Shown here: piece after piece, positions 16,876 through 55,183 of the stretch
Position numbering within the stretch: the stretch's first letter is position 1
How the letters are laid out: each line of letters starts with the position of its first letter
Source of the DNA: a virus
Virus record (IMG/VR): IMGVR_UViG_3300045988_065440
Location: 17,176 to 81,175 of that record
Reading direction: 5' to 3' (one strand)
Length of the DNA: 64,000 nucleotides
Notes under the pieces: model-generated
What the model was told of the DNA's origin: nothing
Databases searched by the model: none
Seen by the model: only the letters and a program-made list of their open reading frames with translations
Position numbers and translations under genes: made by a program

Positions 16876-17301
16876 ATGAGTTGTAAAAATGTTTGTAAGC
16901 TCTGTAGTCATCTTGTGATAAGCCAATCTGTTGCGTTTACTGGCGGGAATCTCGTAATCACACTTCCGGCAGGCAGTTATTCAAATGGCGAAAAGTATTG
17001 CATTGTGATCGCACAAAGTATACCAGAAGCCACTACAATTACCGCCCCGGTAATGATTCAGATAGGAGCAGGAACAACTTTGTATCCGCTAGAGAATCGT
17101 TGCTGCGCACAGGTTACAGCGTGTGGAGTAAGAACCAGAACGAAGTACGCAACCAGAGTAGCTACAAGTGCAACTGGTGGAGTATTCAAGATGTTAGGAA
17201 ATCCAGCTTGTAGTCCGAGCAACAATTTAACGGCAATTAATGGTACAGCCCCAACGACAGACACACCTGTTACACAGGCTGTTAGAAAGGGGGAACTGTA
17301 A
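16876..17301 (+). CDS. Cys-rich hypothetical protein
   Basis: ATG 16876 with a GAGAGG SD. N-terminal CKNVCKLC and internal CC. Confidence 0.55.
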   Translation: MSCKNVCKLCSHLVISQSVAFTGGNLVITLPAGSYSNGEKYCIVIAQSIPEATTITAPVMIQIGAGTTLYPLENRCCAQVTACGVRTRTKYATRVATSATGGVFKMLGNPACSPSNNLTAINGTAPTTDTPVTQAVRKGEL

Positions 17302-29511: not shown

Positions 29512-29626
29512 TTTGGTAAAACCAACAGGCTAGACCGATCATCGAAAAGCGGAAATGCCTTGCCGCCTGCCTGTTGATTTACATACATTTCAAGGCATCT
29601 TTTATACGAAAGGCAGGTATTTTTTT
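29512..29626 (+). ncRNA. structured leader, copy 1 (riboswitch-like or cis-regulatory)
   Basis: TTTGGTAAAACCA block. P1 CAACAGGC (29523-29530)/GCCTGTTG (29569-29576). ATGCCTTG (29555-29562)/CAAGGCAT (29591-29598). Alternative helix CCTGCCT (29566-29572)/AGGCAGG (29611-29617) followed by a T-run. Confidence 0.45.
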
Positions 29627-30097
29627 ATGAAATTCAAAGAACAATCAAAAAGTCTCAATATTCCAATATCAAGAGAACCTATTATCTACTTTCTTCTGGA
29701 CGGAGATGAAGTGGTTTATGTTGGGCAATCCCGATTGGGACTTTTTCGTCCGTACAGTCATGCAAATAAACATTTTACTTCGGTTTCTGTTATTAAATGT
29801 CAACTAGAAGAACTGGATTCTTTGGAGATTTTTTATATCAGAAAATATTTACCAAAATACAATCAAAAACTTGTTGACGATAAGCATGAGTTCTCTTTTG
29901 GAAAAGTAAGAAGAATAATAAGAGATCAAACAGATTTTAAAAATTGTACTGTTTTTCATATAAGGAAAATGGTAAAAATTATGAAAATAAATACTTTTTC
30001 TATTCAAGATACTTTTTACATGGCATCTGATGATGCGGAAAAAATAATTGATTATGTAAATTCTCATTATGACGGTCACGAATTAAAAGTATCGTAA
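29627..30097 (+). CDS. GIY-YIG nuclease (free-standing homing-endonuclease-like)
   Basis: IIYFLLDGDEVVYVGQS...R..YSH...E...YI..Y.PKYN matches the GIY-YIG core. ATG 29627. Confidence 0.65.
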   Translation: MKFKEQSKSLNIPISREPIIYFLLDGDEVVYVGQSRLGLFRPYSHANKHFTSVSVIKCQLEELDSLEIFYIRKYLPKYNQKLVDDKHEFSFGKVRRIIRDQTDFKNCTVFHIRKMVKIMKINTFSIQDTFYMASDDAEKIIDYVNSHYDGHELKVS

Positions 30098-30098
30098 T

Positions 30099-30229
30099 TT
30101 TGGTAAAACCAGTAGGCTAGGGTAGCTCCCGAAAAGTGTAAACCTTGATGCACCTGCCTGCTGTTTTTATAAATCAAGGATTCTGGCATATTACGGAGAT
30201 GCCAACGACCAACAAGGAGGTTATCTATT
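30099..30229 (+). ncRNA. structured leader, copy 2
   Basis: Same TTTGGTAAAACCA, AGGCTAG, CGAAAAG and CCTGCCTG blocks. P1 CAGTAGGC (30110-30117)/GCCTGCTG (30156-30163) with a compensatory A:U to G:C change. CCTTGAT (30143-30149)/ATCAAGG (30173-30179). Confidence 0.45.
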
Positions 30230-39241: not shown

Positions 39242-39940
39242 TCACTTAATAATGTATTCCCAATATTGATTTTTAATATCCGCATATCCGTTCTTACGAA
39301 TCAACACTTTATCCCCGGAAAACATCGTAAAATCAGAATCCAGCTTTTGCACATAATCCATGTTTACAACAAATGACTTATGGCAACGCAAAAACCGTTT
39401 ATCAAGGTAAGGCTCAACCGACTTTAAAGTTGCATACATACTGTGCATAATCCCGTTCGTGCAATGAACAAAAACTTGCTTATCCCGTGCTTCGAGGTAC
39501 TCGATTTTGTTCAATGGAATCCTTATAATGCAATCTCTGTGTCTGATTGTGAGCATCTTGTGTTTCATATCACTCAAGGTATTGTCAATCATAGAAAACA
39601 TTCTTCCGTGTTCATTTCCCTTGATGATATAATGCGTAAATTCAACATCCAACGCATCAAAAACAAAATCCTTGTGAGCTGTCCAGAAAGCAATTTTGCC
39701 CTTATATCCACACTCTCGGAGTTCTTTGGCAATATCCACGCCATTTTCGTTTTTAAGTATTACATCCAAGACAATCATATCAAACCATTTTCCGTCCTTA
39801 ACATCATCTATCAAGGGTTCCCCACTGAAATAACCGTCTATCGTATAATTCCGGTCACCGTTTTGCTTCAAAAACGGTTCAATCCGATGCTTAAAATACT
39901 CAACCTGTAGTTCACAATCGTCACAAATAGCAATTTTCAT
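39242..39940 (-). CDS. LytTR/AgrA-family response regulator (orphan)
   Basis: Receiver domain MKIAICDD...DMIVLDV. C-terminal LytTR domain ...IEYLEARDKQVFVHCTNG...LRCHKSFVVNMDYV. ATG 39940 with a GGAAGGTG SD. Confidence 0.8.
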   Translation of the reverse strand: MKIAICDDCELQVEYFKHRIEPFLKQNGDRNYTIDGYFSGEPLIDDVKDGKWFDMIVLDVILKNENGVDIAKELRECGYKGKIAFWTAHKDFVFDALDVEFTHYIIKGNEHGRMFSMIDNTLSDMKHKMLTIRHRDCIIRIPLNKIEYLEARDKQVFVHCTNGIMHSMYATLKSVEPYLDKRFLRCHKSFVVNMDYVQKLDSDFTMFSGDKVLIRKNGYADIKNQYWEYIIK

Positions 39941-40188
39941 AGTAATCACCTTCCGTTTATCGCCTACGCTTCAACTTTCATCAGATTATCCTCATCTAAT
40001 CAATTAATTATGGTAATATAGTAGCACTGAAACGGAAATGTGTAAATAGTTCAGCAGAAGTTCGAAAAAAATCGACATCTTAATACGTTGGTACAGCCTG
40101 CCAGATTACTCTGGGGAGGAGATGTGATCGTGAATGCAGGTTTTGCCATAAAAAGAGCCGGGGAGTAAAATCCTCGGCTCGTTGCTGT

Positions 40189-40311
40189 TTATCCTTTGAA
40201 AATACGACCGCAACTTTTACATTGGTATTTTGTGGAGAACAATCCTTTACTAACGATCTGAACATTAGCACTACGACAAGTAAGAGCAGGGCATTTTATC
40301 TTTTGAGTCAC
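40189..40311 (-). CDS. possible 40-aa zinc-ribbon peptide
   Basis: GTG start. CPALTC...CKSC. Followed by hairpin GAGCCGAGG/CCCCGGCTC and a T-run on the minus strand. The SD is weak. Confidence 0.3.
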   Translation of the reverse strand: MTQKIKCPALTCRSANVQIVSKGLFSTKYQCKSCGRIFKG

Positions 40312-40334
40312 TTTATCTATTTTCTTTCTTTTCC

Positions 40335-40853
40335 TCATTTAACATCCCTCACGTTTTCGATATATTTTGGCATAAACCACGCTGAATTGTGACCGCTCCA
40401 ATAGTCGATACCATAATCAATAATTTCCCCATAAAGTGTCAAGTAAGTCCCTGGAACATAGTCTGTATTTTTGAAATCATAATCATTGGAGTATAGAATA
40501 CCCACGTCATTGCCGCTTCCGTAGCTGTCGGTATCTTTTGAATAAATGCCAACAAGACTGCAATTACTGCTAAGATTATACTTTTCAGTCTTGTCGGAGA
40601 TCATTAAATCATAAGGGTCTATTGTTGCAGTGCCTTCAACGTAAAGATCTATTTTGACAAACTGACCTTCCAGACTTTTCTTTGAGAAAGTAATATCTTC
40701 ATACCACATTTCGGTACATTTTTTCTTGTATTCTTCCTCTGATAAAGAATTCATGTCTGTTTCTTCTTGAGTCATTTCAGCGTCTGCATAGACTTCTATG
40801 GGGCAAGCGCATAAAATTCCTGACAGCATTGCAACTATAAGTTTTCTTCTCAT
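40335..40853 (-). CDS. secreted protein (signal peptide)
   Basis: MRRKLIVAMLSGILCAC...ADA; AAGGAGG SD. Confidence 0.65.
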   Translation of the reverse strand: MRRKLIVAMLSGILCACPIEVYADAEMTQEETDMNSLSEEEYKKKCTEMWYEDITFSKKSLEGQFVKIDLYVEGTATIDPYDLMISDKTEKYNLSSNCSLVGIYSKDTDSYGSGNDVGILYSNDYDFKNTDYVPGTYLTLYGEIIDYGIDYWSGHNSAWFMPKYIENVRDVK

Positions 40854-41039
40854 GGTGCATTCCTCCTTGGTAAAATTTGCATATATTATACCGCAAGAAT
40901 CGACAATAGCATAGTCAAAACCGAAATATTTTTCATATTTTTATCCATTAAAAATGCAGTTTTATCGTTTTGCCCGATTAATTTGCACAAAAAGTGGTAT
41001 AACTAAGTACATAAATTATAGACTAAAGAGGTATATATT

Positions 41040-41381
41040 ATGAGGAAGATTGAGAGATTGCTGATCGCAGCAGGAGTAATTCTCTTTGCCAACTACATAA
41101 TCCACTTGCCAATGTGCGTGAAAGACTATGCCAATAAGGATTTTGGTATATACTCAACCCAAACTATGCACAAGCATTCAACGCTTACTATGAGCACGGT
41201 TTTGAAACCGGCGTCTAAATCTACGCTCAAATTCTACATTTCACCGCACAAATCAGATTTTATCTTTGACTACACAAATAATTTCTATGCGATCATAAAT
41301 ATTCCAGTCTATCTCTGGCAGTTTGCAAGGGCGAATATTAATCCATGTGTCCTGTTTTCATTGGACTTACGGAAAATATGA
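41040..41381 (+). CDS. hypothetical membrane protein
   Basis: N-terminal TM LLIAAGVILFANYII; AGAGGT SD. Confidence 0.45.
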   Translation: MRKIERLLIAAGVILFANYIIHLPMCVKDYANKDFGIYSTQTMHKHSTLTMSTVLKPASKSTLKFYISPHKSDFIFDYTNNFYAIINIPVYLWQFARANINPCVLFSLDLRKI

Positions 41382-41459
41382 TAAAAATAAATGTTCGAAT
41401 GCATATTTTTCACTGTCCAGACATATACTGTAGTAAAGTTTCAATTGGGAGGGTTATTT

Positions 41460-41567
41460 ATGGATTATAAGAAAGAGATTATTGAATTATTAGATAAGGT
41501 AAAATTAGAAAGTACTTTAAAAAGAGTATACAAGTTGCTGGTATACTTATATTTAAGAGAAGAGTAG
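41460..41567 (+). CDS. hypothetical 35-aa peptide
   Basis: GGGAGGG SD 7 nt upstream; followed by a strong terminator. Confidence 0.4.
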   Translation: MDYKKEIIELLDKVKLESTLKRVYKLLVYLYLREE

Positions 41568-41573
41568 CCTAAA

Positions 41574-41606
41574 ATGCCGCATCTACAGTTAAAGCAGATG
41601 CGGCAT
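41574..41606. terminator. bidirectional terminator
   Basis: ATGCCGCATCT/AGATGCGGCAT 11-bp stem. Confidence 0.65.
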
Positions 41607-41611
41607 AATAA

Positions 41612-42253
41612 TTATTCTGTTTTTAAATCATCTGGCGATGCGGAGAAATAATATTCGAATTCGGAACTGTCATAATCGCTGCCTAACATTGAATTTATTT
41701 TGTCCGCAATAGATGTTCCTAATTCCTCTCCGAATTCAGCGTCTTCAACTTTTGTTCTTTTATATTCTGTAAAAATGTTTCCCCAGTCGTCTTGTGTGCC
41801 TGCATAGTAAATCTGGATGAGATCGCCGTCTTCTTTAGGATTTAAGTAAGATAAGGTTTTATCTGTTACGTTTATCATACTTTTAGGAAAAAATACTTTT
41901 TGAACATCACAGGAATTAAAAGCAGCATCATATATTTCAGTAATTCCTTCTTGAAAAATAACTGATTCAACATGAGAACTTCCAATTCCGATCTGGAAAT
42001 CTGATAAATCTGTTGCGTAGTCTGTTCCGTCAATATTGTATGATGGAAGAATTTCTAAAATTTTGCACTTGCCATCATAACCGTGCAATTTCACAGAGTT
42101 TCCCTCTATATCATAATCAAAATCACCGATTACACCGTACTTTTCAGAATCATCCTTTTGAACTTCAACGCCAGTCACGCCACCTGCATAAGTTGGAGTA
42201 GAAACTCCTAAAATTGCAAAAGTACAAAATGCAATTAATAGCTTTTTCTTCAT
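41612..42253 (-). CDS. secreted BspA-type leucine-rich-repeat protein
   Basis: MKKKLLIAFCTFAILGVSTPTYA signal peptide. ...ITEIYDAAFNSCDVQKVFFPKSM... is LRR_5-like. Start chosen at the ATG 9 nt after GGAGG. Confidence 0.6.
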   Translation of the reverse strand: MKKKLLIAFCTFAILGVSTPTYAGGVTGVEVQKDDSEKYGVIGDFDYDIEGNSVKLHGYDGKCKILEILPSYNIDGTDYATDLSDFQIGIGSSHVESVIFQEGITEIYDAAFNSCDVQKVFFPKSMINVTDKTLSYLNPKEDGDLIQIYYAGTQDDWGNIFTEYKRTKVEDAEFGEELGTSIADKINSMLGSDYDSSEFEYYFSASPDDLKTE

Positions 42254-42361
42254 AGACATTTCCTCCTTGGTATTAGTTGATTTTATTATATCACTATAAA
42301 TCAAAACAACAAAGCAGAATATAAAAAAGACCAGAGTTTTTTATTCTCTGGCCTTTCTTTT

Positions 42362-42724
42362 TTAATTGTTTTCCAATTCTGTTAGGATTTCTTGGAGTTG
42401 CTTCCAATGTTCATCACTGAGCTTTGCGAACTTTACAAGAATTTTCTTAGCAAAGTCATTATCCCCGGTCATTACCGAATCAACGATAGCCTGCGCATCA
42501 CTATCGTCGCTTTGGAACATATCTCCGATTCCGTTTACGAGCCAGTCATAATTGACTTTGTAGCTGGCACATATTAGTTTGATGTTCTTTTCGGATAGAT
42601 CACGTTGACCGTTTTCAATCATGGACAATGCCGCTTGTTTAATTGCGAGTGTCTCTGCGAAGTCTTTCTGATTCTTTCCTAATTGTTTACGAAGAATCGA
42701 AACTCTTTCATTTATTGTTTCCAA
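42362..42724 (-). CDS. XRE-family (CI-like) repressor
   Basis: HTH LGKNQKDFAETLAIKQAALSMIENGQRDLS. TTG start with an AAGGAGG SD. Divergent from the early operon. Confidence 0.8.
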   Translation of the reverse strand: METINERVSILRKQLGKNQKDFAETLAIKQAALSMIENGQRDLSEKNIKLICASYKVNYDWLVNGIGDMFQSDDSDAQAIVDSVMTGDNDFAKKILVKFAKLSDEHWKQLQEILTELENN

Positions 42725-42751
42725 TGCTTGTTCCTCCTTTCAATATTATAA

Positions 42752-42841
42752 TATCACTAGAGTGATAAAAAGTCAACAAAAATGTAATATCATGCTTGAC
42801 AAAATATTACTCTAGTGATATATTATAATCACACAAGTGAT
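42752..42841. promoter_or_regulatory. genetic switch: three ATCAC-N-GTGAT operators with divergent promoters
   Basis: TATCACTAGAGTGATA (42752-42767), TATTACTCTAGTGATA (42805-42820), ATCACACAAGTGAT (42828-42841). Rightward TTGACA (42796-42801), 17 nt, TATATT. Leftward TTGACT, 17 nt, TATTAT. Confidence 0.7.
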
Positions 42842-42860
42842 ACAGAAAGGAGTGAGAGGA

Positions 42861-43022
42861 ATGACAGGTGATAGACGAGAAGCGTTTAGAAAAATGGTAG
42901 AACGTTTTAATAATCTGCCAGAGAAAAAGCAAGATCAAATGCTCTGGTATGGAAAAGCAATCATTGATATAGAGGAAAGCGAATCCAGTAAAAAAGAACC
43001 TGCAACAGTAAAAAGTGATTAA
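42861..43022 (+). CDS. small protein in Cro position
   Basis: ATG 42861 with an AAAGGAG SD. First gene of the rightward operon. Confidence 0.5.
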   Translation: MTGDRREAFRKMVERFNNLPEKKQDQMLWYGKAIIDIEESESSKKEPATVKSD

Positions 43023-43848
43023 GAAAGGAGTGATAAGCACGAACCAGTTAGTACATATTGGAAATTCAGACATTTCCATAAAAGAGTATAACGGTCAGCG
43101 AGTTGTAACGTTCAAAGATATTGACATGGTACACGGTAGACCAGACGGAACAGCAAGCAGAAATTTTAGAACCAACAGAGAGCGTTTCATAGAGGGTGAA
43201 GATTTCTTCCGAGTAAGCGCCGACGAAATTCGTCGCACCAAAATTTTTGACATTCCAGACAAGGCAACTTCTGATTACGCCCTTATGACAGAACAAGGAT
43301 ATCTGATGTTAGTAAAGTCTTTTACAGACAATTTAGCATGGGATGTTCAGAGACAGCTTGTGAATGGATATTTCAAAACCAGAGAAAAAGTAAAAAGGGC
43401 ATTATCACCAGAACTTCAAATGTTGCAGGGACTACTTTCACAAATGGTAGAGAAAGAACTTGCTGATAAAGAAAGAGACCGGCAGATTTTGCTTGCCAAA
43501 GAAACAGCAGATAAAGCTGTTGCGACTACAGAGAATATCAAAGAAGCAGTTAAACCGGTGTTCGATAACTGGCGTTCAGAAATCAATTTGAAATTCAATC
43601 GCATACAAAAATGTGCAGGAGCAGAGTTCAGAATGCTGAGAACAGAAATGTATCAAGAATTGGAACGCAGAGCAGGATGTGATTTGAGTACTAGGCTGAG
43701 GAACAAACGCAACCGTATGCAAGAAAAAGGGTGTACGAAGACAACGATTAATGCACTCAATAAAATGGATATCATTGACGATGATAAAAAGTTGCGTGAG
43801 ATTTTCTCAAAGATCGTAACTGAATACGAAATTAAATATTGTGCGTAG
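43015..43848 (+). CDS. antirepressor (ORF6N/KilA-N-like plus ORF6C)
   Basis: ...IKEYNGQRVVTFKDIDMVHGRPDGTASRNF...EGEDFF...EQGYLMLVKSF... matches the ORF6N domain. The start codon is uncertain. Confidence 0.7.
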   Translation: MIKKGVISTNQLVHIGNSDISIKEYNGQRVVTFKDIDMVHGRPDGTASRNFRTNRERFIEGEDFFRVSADEIRRTKIFDIPDKATSDYALMTEQGYLMLVKSFTDNLAWDVQRQLVNGYFKTREKVKRALSPELQMLQGLLSQMVEKELADKERDRQILLAKETADKAVATTENIKEAVKPVFDNWRSEINLKFNRIQKCAGAEFRMLRTEMYQELERRAGCDLSTRLRNKRNRMQEKGCTKTTINALNKMDIIDDDKKLREIFSKIVTEYEIKYCA

Positions 43849-43864
43849 AAAGGAAGTGAACAAT

Positions 43865-43960
43865 ATGTCAGATTTTGACAAAGGCTACATCCTTGGAAAA
43901 GTAGAAAGCCTTTCTTCTGATAAGAAAGACGATGATTCTGATAAGAAAGAAAGTTCTTAA
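43865..43960 (+). CDS. hypothetical 31-aa acidic peptide
   Basis: GAAAGGAAG SD; below the track cutoff. Confidence 0.3.
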   Translation: MSDFDKGYILGKVESLSSDKKDDDSDKKESS

Positions 43961-43978
43961 CTGAAAGGAGGTAATCAA

Positions 43979-44062
43979 ATGGATTTGTACGATGTAGCAC
44001 TTTTGTTTTCGATTGCAGCAATTATTCTAAATATAATTACTTTTTTCCTAAATCGAAAGTAA
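43979..44062 (+). CDS. hypothetical 27-aa hydrophobic peptide
   Basis: GAAAGGAGG SD 8 nt upstream. MDLYDVALLFSIAAIILNIITFFLNRK forms a single TM. Confidence 0.35.
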   Translation: MDLYDVALLFSIAAIILNIITFFLNRK

Positions 44063-44590
44063 GTCCTTGCTTTCTTTCGGTACTTGAAGTACACAGATTT
44101 TATTTCTTTTGTTTGTAATGATTTTTAACGTAATAAAATCGTTACTTAATTTAACATTGGCAGGAATATCAAACAGGACAATTTCAAATATCCCTTGCGA
44201 TGGTTGTAAAGAGATTGGAAAATCCGCACTGAATATTCTTTCAGTGATGGGAATATCTGTTTCATTGTACTTTGGGTGATAACGTTCAGCAACCCATCTG
44301 TGAGTTAGAACACATGGATATGAAGTACGGCAATGACCTAAAAGCAAAGAAATTCTGGTAATGATTATGGCTGAAGATGAATTGTTCTGAAGAATTAAAC
44401 CTAGTTTGATAGACTGTTCGTTTTCTACATTTAAAGTGCATAGTGTTTCCAATGAAACAGAAATATTTGTTCGTTTGTTCCAAAGCGAATGGATGAATTG
44501 AAATAGAGAAAGAACAAATCCTGCGATTGCAATAACGGTTGTAAGCAAAGACTTATTTTCTGTAACAAATTTAACAATGGTACTCAACAT
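44048..44590 (-). CDS. membrane-anchored hypothetical protein
   Basis: ATG 44590 with a GGAGG SD. N-terminal TM TTVIAIAGFVLSLFQFI. Confidence 0.6.
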   Translation of the reverse strand: MLSTIVKFVTENKSLLTTVIAIAGFVLSLFQFIHSLWNKRTNISVSLETLCTLNVENEQSIKLGLILQNNSSSAIIITRISLLLGHCRTSYPCVLTHRWVAERYHPKYNETDIPITERIFSADFPISLQPSQGIFEIVLFDIPANVKLSNDFITLKIITNKRNKICVLQVPKESKDLLSI

Positions 44591-44640
44591 AATTAAAACC
44601 TCCATTTTTTTAATTAGAGTATACCACAGAAAGGAATGAT

Positions 44641-44841
44641 ATGGTGGAAGAAACAAGTGCATTACTCAAACAGATTTTAGAAGAGCTTAAAGCTATTCGG
44701 AAAGAAGTTGCCCCTACGAGAACAAAAAAAGTAACGCACACGGTAAATATTGACGGGAAGACAATTACCGAATGCGTTACAAGCGGAGTTAGTTCTGCGA
44801 TTCAGAAATCCATTCGTGATATTGACGAAGCAGATTCATAG
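44641..44841 (+). CDS. hypothetical protein
   Basis: 66-aa ORF. Confidence 0.5.
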   Translation: MVEETSALLKQILEELKAIRKEVAPTRTKKVTHTVNIDGKTITECVTSGVSSAIQKSIRDIDEADS

Positions 44842-49010: not shown

Positions 49011-49457
49011 ATGCAGTTAGCAACTTGGGGAACATATAGATTTAAAGCCGATGCACAGAAATGCGCAGATGAAATCATGGAAATTTGTGATGAATTAGAA
49101 TCAGCTACGCCACAGCAGATTCTTGACAAAGCAAGAGATAGCAATACTGAACTTCACAAGTGCTTTACATGGGACGATACCGAAGCTGCCGAGAAATGGA
49201 GAGTACAGGAAGCCAGATCGGTTGTAAGAAATCTTAGAATCGTCGAGGTGAAGCCAGATAAAGAACCAGAGCCGACAACAATCAGAGTTTTCTACAAGAC
49301 GGATAACGAATCTGGATATAAACCAACAAAGTTGATCTTGAAGAAGCCAGACGAATATAAAGCACTTGTGGAACGTTGCAGGAGTGAACTTCTGGCAATA
49401 AAGCAGAAATTCCAGAATATCTCGGAATACGAAGAAATATGGGAAATGATTAATTAA
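49011..49457 (+). CDS. hypothetical protein
   Basis: 148-aa ORF with a GGGAGGGG SD. Confidence 0.6.
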   Translation: MQLATWGTYRFKADAQKCADEIMEICDELESATPQQILDKARDSNTELHKCFTWDDTEAAEKWRVQEARSVVRNLRIVEVKPDKEPEPTTIRVFYKTDNESGYKPTKLILKKPDEYKALVERCRSELLAIKQKFQNISEYEEIWEMIN

Positions 49458-50488
49458 ATGTCAAAGCTGCTACTGTGCTGATATTCCTACAGGAGTAGGA
49501 GCACAGAACACAACAACGCACAACAAAGCACGATACAGCACAATAGAACAGCATATTATGCAAAACTTTTATTCTTGTAGGTTTATGAGTGCAGTAGCGG
49601 CAAACTTCCTACGTTAATATGCCTGTAAAATGGGCAAATGAAATACATCACACGATAATACAGAACACAACAAAATAGGTTAAAACAAAATATTCGCTTA
49701 ATTTTACAGGTTTATGAGCGTAGGAAACCACAGCATTTATCAGTCTGCATAAGCAGAAAGACAGGATAACTCACAACAAAACAAAATAAAATAATTCAGT
49801 ATAGTGCAGTATCTCTTTCTTTTGTGCAGAGTGACGAGTGTTGTGAACACTTATTATAGGATAAAAAATCTTATAGCAGGAAATAGCAGCACAGAACAAT
49901 ACAACACAACACTTCAACGGAGGGCTGTTTTTCAGACGGTATAACCGTCAAAGCAAAACAACATAGAACACCACACGACATCATATGATAGCAAAGTATA
50001 CGATAGCAAAATATACGACAAAAATATGACCTTTATATCGTCTGCAAAGCAGTTCTCCAAAATTTGAATTTTGGGTAGGTGGCATGAAAAATGTCACACA
50101 GGATACTAAACGATACCATAGGACAATACAGAATAACACAGTATATGACACTGCAAGACAATTCATGTTACCTACCGAGCATTCAACACAGATGTATTTA
50201 ACTGGCAGTAGAATCTGCCAAGCACAGAAGATTATATCTTCGCACAATATAGAACAGCATACGAAAGTACAATATAGCACATTCTATTGTCGGCTAAGTG
50301 CATCTGAAATTTGCGTAAAGATTCAAGCGGGTTAATCCGCAGGATACCATAGGACACCATAGAATACCGCAGAACAAAATAAATCAAAACAGCATACTAC
50401 ATATGTATTTATTGCAGATTAATCTGTTTGGATGTTTGCGCAAACAGAAACTATAAATCAAATCATAAAATTTCGGAGGGAAAACATT
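49458..50488 (+). ncRNA. ORF-free structured A/C-rich repeat region (upstream array)
   Basis: No credible ORF. Seven AGAACA and two AGGACA copies, all on the + strand. Long-range helices 49622-49631/49701-49710 and 50074-50086/50164-50176 (2 G:U). Several perfect 6-bp hairpins. Confidence 0.45.
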
Positions 50489-51133
50489 ATGGCAACTAAA
50501 AAAGAAGAAGGAATCCAGTTACAGGCAATCAACGTTAAACATGCAACAATCACAATCGAAGGAGACGGAGATTTAGTCCTTAATAAGATGAATGATGTTG
50601 TGGCAATGGATTTAATTAACGCCAGAAAGGACAAGGCAAAAAGAACTGAAAAATCCAACGTTTGGGAAGAAATCATCACGTCTATGCATTGGAGAGATGG
50701 AAAACCTACAAACTTTTCGGAAGAAGGACTGATTGAAGCATTGCAGAACAATGCCCCATGTATCACAGCTTTTGGACTTCTTAAATCGTTCTGTGATGCG
50801 GTTGTCAGAAACGGCATCGACAAATACAGCACGAAATTTAAAGCAGGAGTAAATGTGACGGCAAAAGGCGGTTTAATTCCAATCACATTTGCCGAGCACA
50901 ATATTGATGAAAAACTCATGTCTCCAAAGAAGGGTGCTCCGGTGCTTGTGCATCTGAATAGATTTTCCGGTTGGAAAGCGACATTCGAGATTTCATATGT
51001 CGAGAATATTTATTCGATTGAACAGATCATCAATATCATCGAACTTGCAGGTTTTGGCGGTGGCATTGGCTCTGGACGCACAAGCGGATATGGTAGATAC
51101 CACGTTTCGAAAGAAAACATTGTGATTTATTAA
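50489..51133 (+). CDS. hypothetical protein with C-terminal Cas6/RAMP-type glycine-rich loop
   Basis: ATG 50489 with a GGAGGG SD. 214 aa. ...ELAGFGGGIGSGRTSGYGRYHV fits GhGxxxxxGhG, 12 residues from the C-terminus. Confidence 0.6.
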   Translation: MATKKEEGIQLQAINVKHATITIEGDGDLVLNKMNDVVAMDLINARKDKAKRTEKSNVWEEIITSMHWRDGKPTNFSEEGLIEALQNNAPCITAFGLLKSFCDAVVRNGIDKYSTKFKAGVNVTAKGGLIPITFAEHNIDEKLMSPKKGAPVLVHLNRFSGWKATFEISYVENIYSIEQIINIIELAGFGGGIGSGRTSGYGRYHVSKENIVIY

Positions 51134-51434: not shown

Positions 51435-52379
51435 ATGGCAAACAAAACACAGGTAGCAACAGTAGGAGAACAGCAGGCAGCAGTTGTGATTAACAATCAG
51501 TTTATTGACGGATTGACAAAACAGCTTGAAGAAAAATGTAAATATGGTCTTTCGTTCCCAAAAGACTACAACTTGAGCAATGCACTTATGGGGGCATATC
51601 TAGTTCTCAAGGAAACGAAAGACAGGAATAACAAACCAATTCTGGAATCTTGTAGCCAGATTAGCATCGCAAACAGTCTTATGAACATGGCAACACTAGG
51701 ACTTTCAGTACAAAAAAAACAGGGGTATTTCATCGCTTACAGCGGTCAATGCCAGTTCCAGAGATCATATTTCGGAAATATGACGATTGCCAGAAGATAC
51801 GGAATGAAAGATATTCACGCAGAGATCATCTACCAAGGAGATAAATTCAAATATCATATTGAAGACGGAAATAAGGTTCTGGATTCTCACGAACAGGATT
51901 TTATGAACATTGATAACGAAAAAATCCTTGGAGCATACGCAGTTGTGCTGATGGAAGATGGGGCGAAGCATTTGGAAGTAATGAACATCAAACAGATTAA
52001 GCAAGCTTGGTCACAGGGCTTCGGATACAAGGAAAATGGGAATGGCACACACCAGAAATTCACTGATCAGATGGCAAAGAAAACCGTTATCAATCGTGCC
52101 TTAAAGCAGATCATCAACACTCATGGTGATGTTTTCGTACAGGAAGCGGACGATGATACAGAAACAGTTTCAAGAAATGACGCTTTTGCAGCTGATGTTG
52201 CATATGAAATCGAACAGCACGCCAATAAAGAGGAATTCATCCCAGAACCAATGGCAATCGAAGAACAGCCGAAACAGCCAACAGTCGCAGAAGCCGTAAA
52301 GACTGCCGAGAAAGAACCAGTTCCGGCAGCAGTTGTTGAGCCAGAGATTCCAGATTTTATGAAGCAGGAGGAAATGTGA
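51435..52379 (+). CDS. recT: RecT-family single-strand annealing recombinase
   Basis: ...GLSVQKKQGYFIAYSGQCQFQRSYFGNMTIARRYG...EIIYQGDKFKY...MAKKTVINRALK matches the RecT pattern. Confidence 0.8.
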   Translation: MANKTQVATVGEQQAAVVINNQFIDGLTKQLEEKCKYGLSFPKDYNLSNALMGAYLVLKETKDRNNKPILESCSQISIANSLMNMATLGLSVQKKQGYFIAYSGQCQFQRSYFGNMTIARRYGMKDIHAEIIYQGDKFKYHIEDGNKVLDSHEQDFMNIDNEKILGAYAVVLMEDGAKHLEVMNIKQIKQAWSQGFGYKENGNGTHQKFTDQMAKKTVINRALKQIINTHGDVFVQEADDDTETVSRNDAFAADVAYEIEQHANKEEFIPEPMAIEEQPKQPTVAEAVKTAEKEPVPAAVVEPEIPDFMKQEEM

Positions 52380-52380
52380 T

Positions 52381-52986
52381 ATGAACAATAAAGAAATTTT
52401 ACAGAAAGCAAAGGAACTGGTTGAACTTCTGGAAAAGCAGGAAGAAGCTGGCAAGGTTGCGCTGTCAATGCTGAAACGAGGAGATGTTTTTCAGACCACC
52501 GGGAAGCGTAAATACAAGGTTCTGGAACAGTATGGAGATACAACGAAAATTATTTCGCTTGATCTGGTGAAAGAAAATGTAGAGTTTGGTGATACCTTAG
52601 ATTACAAAGCATCAAATGTAAAGAAACTGTGTGACACAGAAATCTTAAATGATTTTGAGGAAGAATTTGGCGCTGAAAATATCGAAGAGCACACAGCAGA
52701 TATTATCACCGTGGATGGACAGAAATTGGGGACTGTTGATTGCAAAATTCGACCGATTACGTTTGATGAAGCGCGCGGATATACAGATATCACACCGAAT
52801 CCGTGTTTAAACGATTGGTATTGGACATTATCGCCATGGTCAACGAAAGAACGTGGATGGGAGAAAGCCTGTGCCGTTGTTTCCCCTTCGGGCTATTTCG
52901 ACTACGACTATTACTACAGCGTTAATGGTGTTCGCTCAGTTTGTATCTTAAAATCTAATATCTTTGTATCTAAGGCGGAGGAATGA
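52381..52986 (+). CDS. DGR target protein 1 (DUF6273-like / putative C-type-lectin-fold variable protein)
   Basis: C-terminus WYWTLSPWS...AVVSPSGY-FDYDYYYSVN-GVRSVCI carries VR1. Confidence 0.75.
   Translation: MNNKEILQKAKELVELLEKQEEAGKVALSMLKRGDVFQTTGKRKYKVLEQYGDTTKIISLDLVKENVEFGDTLDYKASNVKKLCDTEILNDFEEEFGAENIEEHTADIITVDGQKLGTVDCKIRPITFDEARGYTDITPNPCLNDWYWTLSPWSTKERGWEKACAVVSPSGYFDYDYYYSVNGVRSVCILKSNIFVSKAEE
52870..52947 (+). repeat. DGR variable repeat VR1
   Basis: 78 nt colinear with the TR. All 9 differences in the 62-nt core lie at TR adenines. Confidence 0.85.
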
Positions 52987-53597
52987 TTATGAAGAAAAAT
53001 CTGAAATATTTTGAGGATGAATTATCCCGATTAAGTAAAGAGTTCACGGAATTCAAGAAAAAGCACATCGGAAAGCCGGAAATCGGAAAAGCTATTGAAC
53101 TTGCAGGTATGGAATGGCTGATTCTGGATAAGACAGAAAAAGGATATTTTGCCATTTTGAATGGATTTGATGGAAAAGAAAGAACATTTGATTCAGATTC
53201 AAATAACTGGATTTCAAGTAAACTGAGAAATGAGTTAAACACTCGTTTTCTTAAAAAAATTACGGACGAGCTTGGAGAAGATGCAGTTATTGAGTTTGAT
53301 CGAGATTTACTTTCTATGGACGGCCAGACAGAATATGGACATTGTAAAGATAGGATTTCACTTTTGACTGTGGATGAGTACCGGAAATATCGTAAATTGC
53401 TGCCGAACATGTCGAAATGGTGGTGGTTGATTACGCCATGGAGTACACCAGTAAATGATTACAGTACAACAATTACCGTTGTTTCCCCTTCGGGCTATGT
53501 CAGCTGCGACATTTACAGCTTTTACGACGACGGTTATGGTGTTCGCCCAGCTTGTATCTTTTCTTCTTCAATCTTTGAATCAGGAAATGATGATTGA
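52983..53597 (+). CDS. DGR target protein 2 (paralog of target 1)
   Basis: WWWLITPWS...TVVSPSGY-VSCDIYSFYDDGY-GVRPACI carries VR2. Confidence 0.75.
   Translation: MIMKKNLKYFEDELSRLSKEFTEFKKKHIGKPEIGKAIELAGMEWLILDKTEKGYFAILNGFDGKERTFDSDSNNWISSKLRNELNTRFLKKITDELGEDAVIEFDRDLLSMDGQTEYGHCKDRISLLTVDEYRKYRKLLPNMSKWWWLITPWSTPVNDYSTTITVVSPSGYVSCDIYSFYDDGYGVRPACIFSSSIFESGNDD
53472..53558 (+). repeat. DGR variable repeat VR2 (9 nt longer than TR)
   Basis: 87 nt. It aligns to the TR if TR AATTACAAC is duplicated. All core substitutions lie at TR adenines. Confidence 0.8.
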
Positions 53598-53968
53598 TGG
53601 CAAATGAAGATTTAAAGGTAATAACAAAGGCCAAGCAACTTGCAAAGCATACATTAATAGTTACGAGTAATGCCAGACGATACCCGAAAAAATACAGGTT
53701 TTCACTTGTAGATAAAATGCAAAATAAAGCATTGGAAATTTATGAGTCACTATTTGAAGCCAACCGAACTGATCTGAAAGATTATAAAAGAGAGCGATTA
53801 GAACTTCAAACAAAAGCCATTACTCATTGTGATGAGTTGATGTACTTTATAGAACTTTCATATGAATTAGGAATTATCAATTCCGGTGGAATGGAAGCAT
53901 GGTCGCAAATGGTAAAAGATATAAAGTACATGACTATTTCATGGAGAACAAAAGACAGAAAAAGATAA
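53597..53968 (+). CDS. avd: Avd-like four-helix-bundle accessory protein
   Basis: ~123 aa, basic and helical (...YPKKYRFSLVDKMQNKALEIYESLFEAN...). Lies between the target genes and the TR, as in DGRs. Confidence 0.7.
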   Translation: MANEDLKVITKAKQLAKHTLIVTSNARRYPKKYRFSLVDKMQNKALEIYESLFEANRTDLKDYKRERLELQTKAITHCDELMYFIELSYELGIINSGGMEAWSQMVKDIKYMTISWRTKDRKR

Positions 53969-53990
53969 TTTTCACAGGTTATGCACTGCG

Positions 53991-54068
53991 AATACCGTTG
54001 TTTCCCCTTCGGGCTATATCAACAACAACAATTACAACAACGAAAATGGTGTTCGCCCAACATGGATC
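53991..54068 (+). repeat. DGR template repeat (TR)
   Basis: Non-coding copy of VR with an AAC/AAT-rich core (ATC AAC AAC AAC AAT TAC AAC AAC GAA AAT), directly upstream of the RT. Confidence 0.85.
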
Positions 54069-54163
54069 ACATGCAGACAGAGTAAGCGTAAAGCTGAAAT
54101 CAGAAAAGATACAAGCAAATGCATAACCTTTCCGCAATGGACAAATATAAAGGAACAAAATAA

Positions 54164-55183
54164 ATGGATAAAGAAATTATTGCAAATTTTGAGAATTTAT
54201 ATCGTTCTTACAAAAAGGTTAAGATCGGTAAGAAATTTAATTCAGGTACTGCAAGATTTTCTAATTTGTCTCTTGAAGGCATTCATCTCTTGAAGGAACA
54301 ATTAGAAAGTCAAACGTATACCATAAATCCGTATAATAAATTTCAAATTCATGAGCCAAAAGAGCGAACGATAGAATCATGTGCATTTAAGGATAAAGTA
54401 GTGCAGAGATGCTTTTCTGATTACATTCTGACACCGAAACTTGAAAATATCCTGATTAAATGGAACACTGCCGGGCAGCAAGGAAAAGGGCAACACATGG
54501 CAATGGACGGGTTAAGAAATCAAATGTTGGATTTCTATAAAAAAAATGGAATGAATAGTTGGATTGTAAAATGTGATATTCACAAATACTTTTATTGCAT
54601 AGACCATGAAATCATGAAGGATGTTTTGGATTATTACTTTGATGATGATTTTACAGTCTGGTTAAACCATTTGTTTATTGACAGTACAGGTAATCCCGGG
54701 CTTCCATTAGGAAATCAGGTAAATCAGAAGTACGCATTGTTGCTTTTACATTCACTGGATCAGATGATAACGATTGAATTTGGAAATCCATATTATGGAC
54801 GATACAACGATGATTTTTATGTGATTTGTAAAACGAAAGAAGATGCCAGAGAAATTTTTGAAGCAATCCGAATGATGATTGAAAGCCTTAGACTGGAATT
54901 AAATCCTAAATCACAAATTGTACCATTTTGCATGGGCTTGTGTTATCTGGGTTTTCACCATTACGTGACTGATGAAGGAAAATATATCAGGAAATTGCGT
55001 GGTGATAAGAAAAGAAAAACACAGAGGAAAATTCGAAGATGGGTACAGGCGGTGAACGACAGGAAGATGCCGATAAAAAAATTCAATGAAAAATACGAAT
55101 CATGCAAGAATCATATGCTTCATGGAAATTGCATCAAATTATGCCATAGTATGGATTTGGATATTGAAAGGAGAATGAAATGA
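54164..55183 (+). CDS. DGR-type reverse transcriptase
   Basis: YNDD catalytic box (GRYNDDFYVIC). LPLGNQVNQ resembles the DGR [ILV]GxxxSQ motif. 339 aa. Confidence 0.85.
   Translation: MDKEIIANFENLYRSYKKVKIGKKFNSGTARFSNLSLEGIHLLKEQLESQTYTINPYNKFQIHEPKERTIESCAFKDKVVQRCFSDYILTPKLENILIKWNTAGQQGKGQHMAMDGLRNQMLDFYKKNGMNSWIVKCDIHKYFYCIDHEIMKDVLDYYFDDDFTVWLNHLFIDSTGNPGLPLGNQVNQKYALLLLHSLDQMITIEFGNPYYGRYNDDFYVICKTKEDAREIFEAIRMMIESLRLELNPKSQIVPFCMGLCYLGFHHYVTDEGKYIRKLRGDKKRKTQRKIRRWVQAVNDRKMPIKKFNEKYESCKNHMLHGNCIKLCHSMDLDIERRMK

Follow-up and report, generated by a model that had tools for sequence, protein, structure and literature searches.

A probable diversity-generating retroelement with two small DUF6273-family targets in the recombination module of a phage genome

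The window analysed here is a 64-kb (64,000-nt) stretch of DNA from a gut phage, positions 17,176 to 81,175 of the IMG/VR record IMGVR_UViG_3300045988_065440, and its plus strand carries in the order T1-T2-avd-TR-RT what is very probably a diversity-generating retroelement (DGR). Target gene 1 (T1, 52381-52986) encodes a small stand-alone DUF6273-family protein of 201 aa, and target gene 2 (T2, 52989-53597) encodes a protein of 202 aa with a DUF6273 domain. At the 3′ end of each lies a variable repeat (VR), a copy of the template repeat (TR): VR1 at 52874-52947, and VR2 at 53476-53558, the latter with a 9-nt in-frame insertion relative to the TR. They are followed by an avd-like accessory gene (53597-53968, 123 aa), the 74-nt TR (53995-54068), which holds 19 mutable adenines and is non-coding within the 195-nt spacer between avd and the next gene, and the DGR reverse transcriptase (RT) gene itself (54164-55183, 339 aa), whose product has a YNDD box and an LGNQVNQ motif. 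Directly 5′ of T1 is recT, a gene for a single-strand annealing protein (51435-52379, plus strand; Pfam RecT, E = 2.1e-38), and T1 starts 1 nt past its stop codon. At recT/T1, T1/T2, T2/avd (the avd ATG overlaps the T2 stop as TGATG) and RT/next open reading frame (ORF), the stop codon overlaps the following start or lies 1 nt from it, and an alternative in-frame ATG of T2 at 52983 overlaps the T1 stop. All cassette ORFs are intact, and the TR, with all 19 adenines, is the same as the majority TR of the relatives described below. An earlier note on this DNA, made from the sequence alone, had described a complete DGR with two tandem targets; its RT, Avd-like gene, TR and both VRs were all found, and the RecT, Avd-like and RT genes were confirmed.

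A 23-nt anchor (CCGTTGTTTCCCCTTCGGGCTAT) common to the repeats is present in the window at 52874, 53476 and 53995 and nowhere else, and a sensitive BLAST search of the TR region against the whole window found no fourth TR copy. The earlier note had the three repeats in the right places, with a 5′ limit about 4 nt too generous. Comparison of the TR core (53995-54056) with VR1 gave nine mismatches, all nine at TR adenines (P = 4.6e-6, hypergeometric test based on 19 A among the 62 nt of the core), in agreement with the nine adenine differences and the codon strings quoted before. For VR2 there were 10 mismatches, 10 of 10 at adenines (P = 8.6e-7), given the 9-nt in-frame insertion (AGC TTT TAC-like) after TR position 54036. 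The claim that VR2 changes only at adenines therefore stands once this insertion is allowed for, which the note had left unmentioned and which its VR2 coordinates imply. The mutable adenines are held by the AAY-rich TR codons TAT ATC AAC AAC AAC AAT TAC AAC AAC GAA AAT, where adenine substitution allows 2.7e11 DNA and 5.5e10 protein variants per target and a stop codon is impossible. All adenine-templated variable positions of VR1 fall within 52895-52925. The final 21 nt of VR1 (52927-52947) and the corresponding stretch of VR2 (53538-53558) form ends that resemble an initiation-of-mutagenic-homing site (IMH), and the distance from the VR end to the stop codon is 39 nt in both targets.

A scan of IMG/VR with the RT revealed 80 related loci (RT 88-99% identical), mostly on phage contigs of 42-81 kb and many of them on contigs of 75-81 kb, and 141 in-register TR/VR pairs from 79 related phage contigs were compared. 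VRs differed from the TR at 54% of adenines (1463 of 2705 compared), while the values for the other bases were 0.9% for C (21 of 2415), 1.6% for G (23 of 1437) and 2.6% for T (56 of 2185). The adenine substitutions comprised 799 A>G, 583 A>T and 81 A>C changes, and per-column VR entropy was high at TR-adenine columns only. The TR is nearly invariant among these relatives (18 TR variants), while VR1 and VR2 are different in almost every contig (41 of 44 VR1 and 45 of 48 VR2 sequences were distinct), including those whose RTs are 96-99% identical. VR polymorphism in related genomes, which the earlier note had proposed as a check, is thus present and adenine-restricted. A second TR type (…AGT AAC GGT) is accompanied by VRs that mirror its non-adenine positions, and in one contig (L030) the TR is one AAC codon short, with both VRs shortened by 3 nt as well; therefore both VRs are templated by the TR. 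The same pattern was found at distant loci in Lachnospiraceae genomes, where the 11 RT-bearing loci gave 20 in-register VRs with 9-13 core mismatches each, on TR adenines, with two exceptions (both in VR1 of L106). Because the TR is conserved while the VRs of both targets differ almost only at TR adenines, the cassette is called a DGR.

The TR and VRs differ at their 3′ ends in another way. After the common GGTGTTCGC, the TR has CCAACATGGATC (an IMH*-like end, 54048-54073, plus strand), whereas the VRs have CCAGTTTGTATC, which in the window reads [C/T]CAG[T/C]TTGTATC. This difference accounts for the non-adenine mismatches reported at 54057, 54061 and 54065, which were borne out for VR1. Among the 141 pairs, TR/VR differences in the last 12 nt are near-constant and base-independent. 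This behaviour is as expected of IMH* versus IMH, and the VR ends would accordingly be candidates for IMH function. The TR 3′ end may also form a 4-bp hairpin (CAUG-GAUCA-CAUG, 54061-54073), of which one pair is A-U in 15 and C-G in 21 unique sequences, a compensatory change across TR types; RNAalifold on the TR-spacer RNA found one compensatory pair in all. In the minimum-free-energy fold of 53965-54175 (-41.2 kcal/mol, single sequence), a predicted 10-bp long-range stem between AGGUUAUGCA (53977-53986) and UGCAUAACCU (54120-54129) brackets the TR (53977-54129, plus strand); relatives show wobble changes only in this stem, hence no covariation proof.

Several related loci depart from this scheme in VR length or in the TR. 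VR length differs from that of the own TR in about 7% of VRs, mostly in in-frame steps; such shifts were found in VR2 of the window (+9), VR2 of L102 (+15), and VR1 of L035, L066 and L010 and both VRs of L075 (+6, +6, +3 and -3), and a length of +1 in two VR2s (L046 and L050). The extra codons resemble re-copied AAC/AAT/TAC units with adenine substitutions, which suggests that the RT slipped, or re-primed on its template, at the AAC repeats, or they could be an assembly artefact. In L033, the TR (around 5834) has the VR-type 3′ end CCAGTTTGTATC plus an AAC>GGC change; the "TR" of L065 has lost many adenines, as if itself mutagenised; and in L013/L131 (IMGVR_UViG_3300045988_060245) VR2 is duplicated and a VR1-type copy matches the unmutated TR exactly. 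Such anomalous copies could reflect self-homing, gene conversion between TR and VR, or assembly chimeras, and assembler chimeras in hypervariable regions may explain the VR length variants as well as the odd TRs.

A search of the RT against PDB with phmmer gave as best match 8ub7_A (E = 1.5e-25, 93 bits), a chain identified by tblastn to the BPP-1 brt gene as Brt of Bordetella phage BPP-1. Group II (44.5 bits, 1e-10), retron-type (42 bits, 4e-10) and Drt3a (22 bits) enzymes followed, so that the margin of Brt over group II is about 49 bits. The nearest phage RTs in GenBank are those of nd12, nd4, FP_Brigit, Lelie and FP_Toutatis (33-39% identical), all described DGR phages, and models of defence-associated RTs (DRTs) in PADLOC reached at most 60 bits. 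Judged by sequence, the RT is best placed in the DGR clade and does not group with retron, Abi/DRT or group II enzymes, the groupings that the earlier note had named as refuting. The YNDD box and the LGNQVNQ motif it had reported are both there; the window RT has YNDD in place of the YMDD of relatives. No close relative turned up when bacterial genomes were scanned with the RT. The alternative that the locus is not a DGR at all would require that the repeats are simply the 3′ ends of paralogues and that the RT belongs to a retron, a group II intron or a defence system. It can draw on the top NCBIfam match of the RT, a group II RT/maturase model (100.8 bits, far below its cut-off of 300), and on the 98.5 bits of a generic RT model in PADLOC. 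We regard it as having a negligible chance of being correct, given the adenine restriction (P < 1e-5 in the window and overwhelming in the 141 pairs), the position of a non-coding TR between an Avd-like gene and an RT, the closeness to Brt, and searches of the cassette region that found no intron RNA, no retron msr/msd and no Rfam match.

The small gene at 53597-53968 is called Avd-like from homology and position. Its product matches the NCBIfam model DivGenRetAVD almost over full length (E = 1.8e-10, 102 of 104 profile positions), and among 12 RT-bearing relatives the gene is 67-75% identical in all but L088 (31%); its size and conservation fit an Avd. The match that the earlier note had anticipated was thus obtained, at scores below the curated cut-offs given below.

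T1 and T2 are anciently diverged paralogues (33% identical) of the DUF6273 family, lectin-like and hence probably ligand-binding proteins. T2 matches Pfam DUF6273 (PF19789) with E = 1.9e-6 and 28.3 bits, above the gathering score of 23.5, and phrog_9958, a family without known function, matches both (1.4e-24 for T1 and 9e-50 for T2). T1 has no Pfam match, but it reaches E = 1.7e-58 against a profile of 62 diverse family members, and precomputed PF19789 annotation is found on many T1 homologues; the family assignment made earlier was upheld by these results for both proteins. The same profile found no further family member in the window. Among 1.84 billion representative proteins, the family forms 1321 clusters at 50% identity, most of them stand-alone proteins of about 200 aa, and the extra regions of longer members have no informative Pfam domains. 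T1 alone forms more than 2700 clusters at 90% identity, as expected of a hypervariable protein; its residues 172-182 are hypervariable while the rest is about 88% conserved. An AlphaFold2 model of T2 (pLDDT 94.3, 62 diverse family members) shows a 24-residue N-terminal helix and a mixed α/β domain whose C-terminal strands and loops would be formed by the VR, so the diversified segment is predicted to be a C-terminal surface hairpin of T1 and T2; for T1, AlphaFold2 with 29 close homologues gave no usable structure (pLDDT 43). The T2 model matches the folds of DUF6273 and DUF1566 phage proteins, and its sole solved match is PDB 9qa6 (sequence profile E = 1.5e-3; fold E = 1e-6, TM 0.59). T1 and T2 each form their own orthologous group across relatives, which points to an old two-target state. 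The earlier note considered two targets unusual, but about 13% of DGRs have two (PMC10743442), and DUF6273 target pairs have already been described (PMC10743442, PMC11792537, bioRxiv 2024.10.15.618418). It also found the lack of a signal peptide unusual, which is uninformative in a phage because virion proteins assemble in the cytoplasm.

Several observations weigh against a complete and active DGR of known type. VR2 is 9 nt longer than the TR, so that the present VR2 is no simple copy of the present TR. The RT departs from the motif [I/L/V]GxxxSQ, with LGNQVNQ in the window, GNQVAQ in L085 and GNQAGQ in L093; the likeness to the DGR signature seen before holds for the Gln, and the Ser is replaced by N. 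The SQ is kept in nd12, Lelie, Brigit and L088, and adenine mutagenesis is evident in the RT clade despite the loss of Ser (to N, A or G). The Avd-like protein scores 41 bits in NCBIfam against a curated cut-off of 80, its Pfam matches (23S_rRNA_IVP 4e-7, bAvd 3e-3) are both below gathering, and its family profile found no match among PDB sequences at E up to 10. When the 60 nt that follow each VR were folded as DNA, no hairpin or cruciform appeared, unlike in BPP-1 (0 kcal/mol for VR1; -4.6 kcal/mol for VR2, no better than shuffles). Foldseek of the T2 model against PDB found no significant match to Mtd, TvpA or a classical C-type lectin. Finally, the population evidence consists of differences between assemblies and not of within-population reads, and many of the assemblies come from one IMG/VR dataset. 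Weighing these points against the adenine-restricted divergence of both targets, we hold with high confidence that the cassette is a complete, active DGR that rewrites the C-terminal binding loops of T1 and T2. In the BPP-1 model, RT-Avd reverse transcribes the TR RNA with misincorporation opposite adenines, and the cDNA replaces the VR as directed by the IMH. Here, a TR-containing RNA would be copied by RT-Avd into cDNA with adenine errors, which would replace VR1 and VR2 of T1 and T2; the TR would be spared because its IMH* (CCAACATGGATC) differs from the VR IMH (CCAGTTTGTATC).

The cassette lies among replication and recombination genes. Its neighbours in the window include, besides recT, genes for an SSB-like protein (46157), an SbcC-like ATPase (46771), an MBL-fold hydrolase (55762), a DNA methyltransferase (58857) and a replication-initiator-like HTH protein (59726), while the tail genes (e.g. 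ORFs of 1904 and 1105 aa at 23.7-37 kb) are more than 15 kb away, past a block of minus-strand genes. The placement in the recombination rather than the tail module, which the earlier note had stressed, is real and conserved, with partial precedents. The close stop/start spacing and the neighbours suggest that the cassette is co-expressed with the replication/recombination operon and not with the late structural operon, and such expression together with the recombination genes would be early or middle. Promoter and terminator scans of 45.5-60.5 kb were uninformative (fewer promoter-like sites than in shuffles, and no plus-strand terminator).

Comparable context was found in L085, L088, L093, L098, L099 and L104-L106. 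A 49-kb contig (L085) carries SSB, a 641-aa AAA ATPase, T1, T2, Avd, RT, RecT and YopX; a 115-kb contig (L088) carries DNA ligase, YunG, a metallophosphatase, a single target, Avd and RT; and L093 has a PDDEXK nuclease, a RecT-like protein, a DnaB-like helicase, an ASCH-domain protein and a C5 methylase as neighbours. A search with an 8-sequence alignment identified 18 loci with family members in Lachnospiraceae genomes (Dorea, Mediterraneibacter, Roseburia, Lachnospira, Agathobacter and others). The T1-T2 pair is present in 16 of the 18, and in 11 it is accompanied by Avd (67-75% identical) and RT (54-60%); homologues of SSB, SbcC, RecT, MBL and methylase are again neighbours. In an IMG/VR pattern scan in which TR adenines were wild-carded and matches were classed by their 3′ flank, all 125 matches were TR, VR1-type or VR2-type, and no third target was found for this DGR lineage. 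Because all pattern matches are of these types, there is no third, remote (e.g. tail) target.

In gene order (target, avd, TR, RT), adenine-specific substitution and the difference between TR (IMH*) and VR (IMH) 3′ ends, the cassette resembles the prototype DGR of BPP-1 (mtd-avd-TR-brt), whose Brt is the closest solved relative of the RT. It differs in having two tandem targets instead of one, and in that these are DUF6273 proteins of about 200 aa, whereas the BPP-1 target is the tail-fibre-tip protein Mtd. The BPP-1 system has a GC-rich hairpin after the VR and GxxxSQ in the RT, while the window has no hairpin and GxxxNQ; the window TR is short (74 nt) in comparison, and the BPP-1 cassette lies beside tail genes instead of in a recombination module.

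Closer parallels are found in phages nd4 and nd12 (PMC10743442) and in FP_Toutatis, Lelie and FP_Brigit (PMC5883640, PMC11792537, bioRxiv 2024.10.15.618418), whose DGRs have DUF6273 targets with the VR at the domain C-terminus, as in the window. The DGRs of nd4, nd12 and the Faecalibacterium phages likewise serve two targets per TR, and the small single-domain target is homologous to T1 and T2 (29-34%). The small second targets FP_Toutatis gp24 and Lelie orf58 lie in the early/replication region, near methylases, a prohibitin-family protein, a regulator, a replication initiator and antiterminator Q; in the papers on these phages they are regarded as probable receptor-binding proteins or left open (PMC5883640, PMC11792537, bioRxiv 2024.10.15.618418), and no published virion proteomics for Toutatis or Lelie was found in the literature. 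Unlike in the window, the RT/TR cassette is at the end of the tail/baseplate module in nd12, Lelie and Brigit, and that of Toutatis is reported between tail proteins and integrase. The cassettes of Brigit, Lelie and Toutatis adjoin a large structural target (Hoc-like or "tentaclin"), and the small target is a remote second site, whereas in the window there is no large structural target and the whole cassette serves two small paralogues next to recT.

A precedent for a presumably non-structural target is the DGR of the "Quimbyviridae" (PMC8008677), with a C-type-lectin target outside the structural module, by defence/counter-defence genes. That DGR is from Bacteroides phages and its RT needs frameshifts; one of its targets is structural and the other remote on the opposite strand, whereas both window targets, judged by position, are non-structural, and they lie in tandem beside avd-TR-RT. 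Among solved structures, T2 is matched only by the N-terminal DUF6273 domain of the Thomasclavelia ramosa IgA peptidase (PDB 9qa6; PMC12402451), which differs in being part of a secreted, cell-wall-anchored 137-kDa protease that is not DGR-diversified. Thus, DUF6273 as a lectin-like DGR target in gut phages, two-target DGRs and small single-domain second targets are already published, while we found no description of a DGR wholly inside a recombination operon with two small proteins as its only targets.

The target pair also occurs apart from the diversifier. A T1 variant (P0016) is encoded in a 265-kb contig (ENA ERZ28626358 scaffold_13) and in three shorter Logan contigs from different samples (L081-L084), where the T1-T2 pair is 91% identical in nucleotides to that of the window. 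Two segments of these contigs are shared with the window and no others: 52381-53624, which ends 27 nt into avd, and 139 bp from the 3′ end of recT. Within 10 kb of the pair, Avd, TR and RT are all absent. The pair adjoins a gene for a CxxCxxCC protein and unknown genes, with a helicase, methylases and a "Sequestin" gene nearby; two TnpB/IS605 OrfB genes are also among the neighbours. VR1 is identical in all four contigs, VR2 has one synonymous base difference across the three contigs that include it, and the flanking gene content differs. On these sequences, the pair moved without its diversifier into an unrelated, probably jumbo, phage, where the VRs are frozen.

The RT is absent while T1/T2 homologues are kept at seven prophage-like Lachnospiraceae loci (L095, L096, L098, L099, L101, L108 and L110). 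In L098, from a Lachnospira intestinalis isolate, Avd is followed directly by RecT, and L096 has a truncated Avd only. These RT-less Lachnospiraceae loci appear to be stages of cassette decay. That the copy in the window is itself decaying or inactive, with VR differences that are historical, is in our view very unlikely. RT-less or Avd-only derivatives do exist (L095, L096, L098, L099 and L101), the RT-less copy in L081-L084 has frozen VRs, and VR2 of the window is longer than its TR; but the cassette ORFs are intact, the TR with its 19 adenines is the majority TR, and nearly identical RTs are found with different VRs in nearly every contig.

What the two diversified proteins do was assessed from gene position and comparison. 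We tentatively favour, at somewhat under an even chance, that T1 and T2 are early-made, non-virion soluble binders in the conflict between phage and host, because they lie in an early module in at least six divergent phage backgrounds, are coupled to recT and avd, have no structural DUF6273 partner and were transferred without the RT. A quite plausible competing view is that they are carried on the virion as receptor-binding or adhesion proteins, with genes that simply lie apart from the structural ones, and would switch host range or mucus adhesion like Mtd or the small "target 2" of nd4 and nd12, with the N-terminal helix docking on tail or capsid. To our knowledge, receptor binding is the role of all phage DGR targets whose function has been tested (BPP-1 Mtd). 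The DUF6273 domain is found in tail, Hoc-like and "tentaclin" proteins, as well as in proteins named as receptor-binding or tail-collar, one TR serves a large structural and a small DUF6273 protein in Toutatis, Lelie, nd4 and nd12, and the 24-residue helix of the T2 model could serve as an anchor. Against a virion-borne role, the small targets lie among replication, recombination and DNA-modification genes and never in the structural module in every context examined, T1 and T2 are apparently translationally coupled to recT and avd, and the window encodes no other DUF6273 domain. The transfer of the pair to the otherwise unrelated 265-kb phage contig, where a specific docking partner is unlikely, likewise argues against a need for one on the virion. 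Some other role for T1 and T2 seems improbable. The fuller proposal, that this is a class of DGR serving no virion protein, with two early cytoplasmic lectin-fold binders acting as "intracellular antibodies" against variable proteins of the host or of rival phages, for example defence systems, is on balance unlikely; a possible addition to it is that the adjacent phage RecT/SSB carries out cDNA integration.

The retrohoming or integration step of DGRs is called not understood in recent work, and BPP-1 cDNA in E. coli integrates only given RecT protein (bioRxiv 10.1101/2025.03.24.644984; 10.64898/2026.07.21.739853). The placement of the cassette might therefore be functional, with the phage's own single-strand annealing machinery integrating the mutagenised cDNA as a natural counterpart of "DGRec". 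In keeping with this, recT abuts T1 here, a RecT gene lies directly 3′ of the RT in L085, and RecT-type genes are within 8 kb in nine of about 20 loci; the TRs of L065 and L033, which look mutagenised or have a VR-type 3′ end, are reminiscent of TR self-overwriting in RecT-driven synthetic systems. However, recT is not consistently next to the cassette: its distance and side differ between loci, and in about half of them no RecT was detected within 8 kb. The asymmetry between IMH and IMH*, which is conserved, points to a dedicated homing step, the shared location may just reflect a common need for early expression, and the anomalous TRs may be assembly chimeras. We consider a functional placement doubtful, with a minor share of the probability.

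Other features of the window were noted as well. Between the ORFs at 49011-49457 and 50432-51133 there is a stretch of about 1 kb (49457-50432) without a convincing ORF, whose plus strand is strongly A+C-rich and contains a great many degenerate direct repeats (ACAGAACA, GATACCATAGGACA and ATAGAACAGCATA) along with an inverted repeat of 26 nt (49606-49631 with 49701-49726); a replication origin/iteron region or a non-coding RNA locus may lie here. Two copies of the Rfam int-alpA RNA (RF02996), both above gathering, flank the ORF at 29555-30097 (29523-29595 and 30110-30179, plus strand), a little downstream of the tape-measure-like ORF of 1904 aa. A block of minus-strand ORFs plus an anti-repressor gene (43015-43848, phrog_4608) at 39242-44662 separates the structural from the replication/recombination half and resembles a lysogeny/regulation switch region. 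At the start of the window there is a cluster of four tRNA genes on the plus strand (429-1631): Gln-TTG, two Met-CAT and one with the anticodon ACA that ARAGORN assigned to Cys.

In the current view, phage DGRs are almost always devices that alter tail or capsid proteins and so serve host range or adhesion (PMC8144416, PMC12636319). The lineage described here is widespread in phages of Lachnospiraceae, with more than 2700 protein clusters and a presence in 18 bacterial genomes and on at least 80 viral contigs. The tight linkage of its cassette to genes for RecT, SSB and nucleases offers a natural system for studying the integration of DGR cDNA, a step called unknown in two engineering papers of 2025-2026 and bypassed there only by adding RecT, and the RT-less transfer with frozen VRs provides a natural control for the diversifier. 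If the targets act inside the cell, DGR hypermutation would be a strategy of counter-defence or takeover, and not of adsorption alone.

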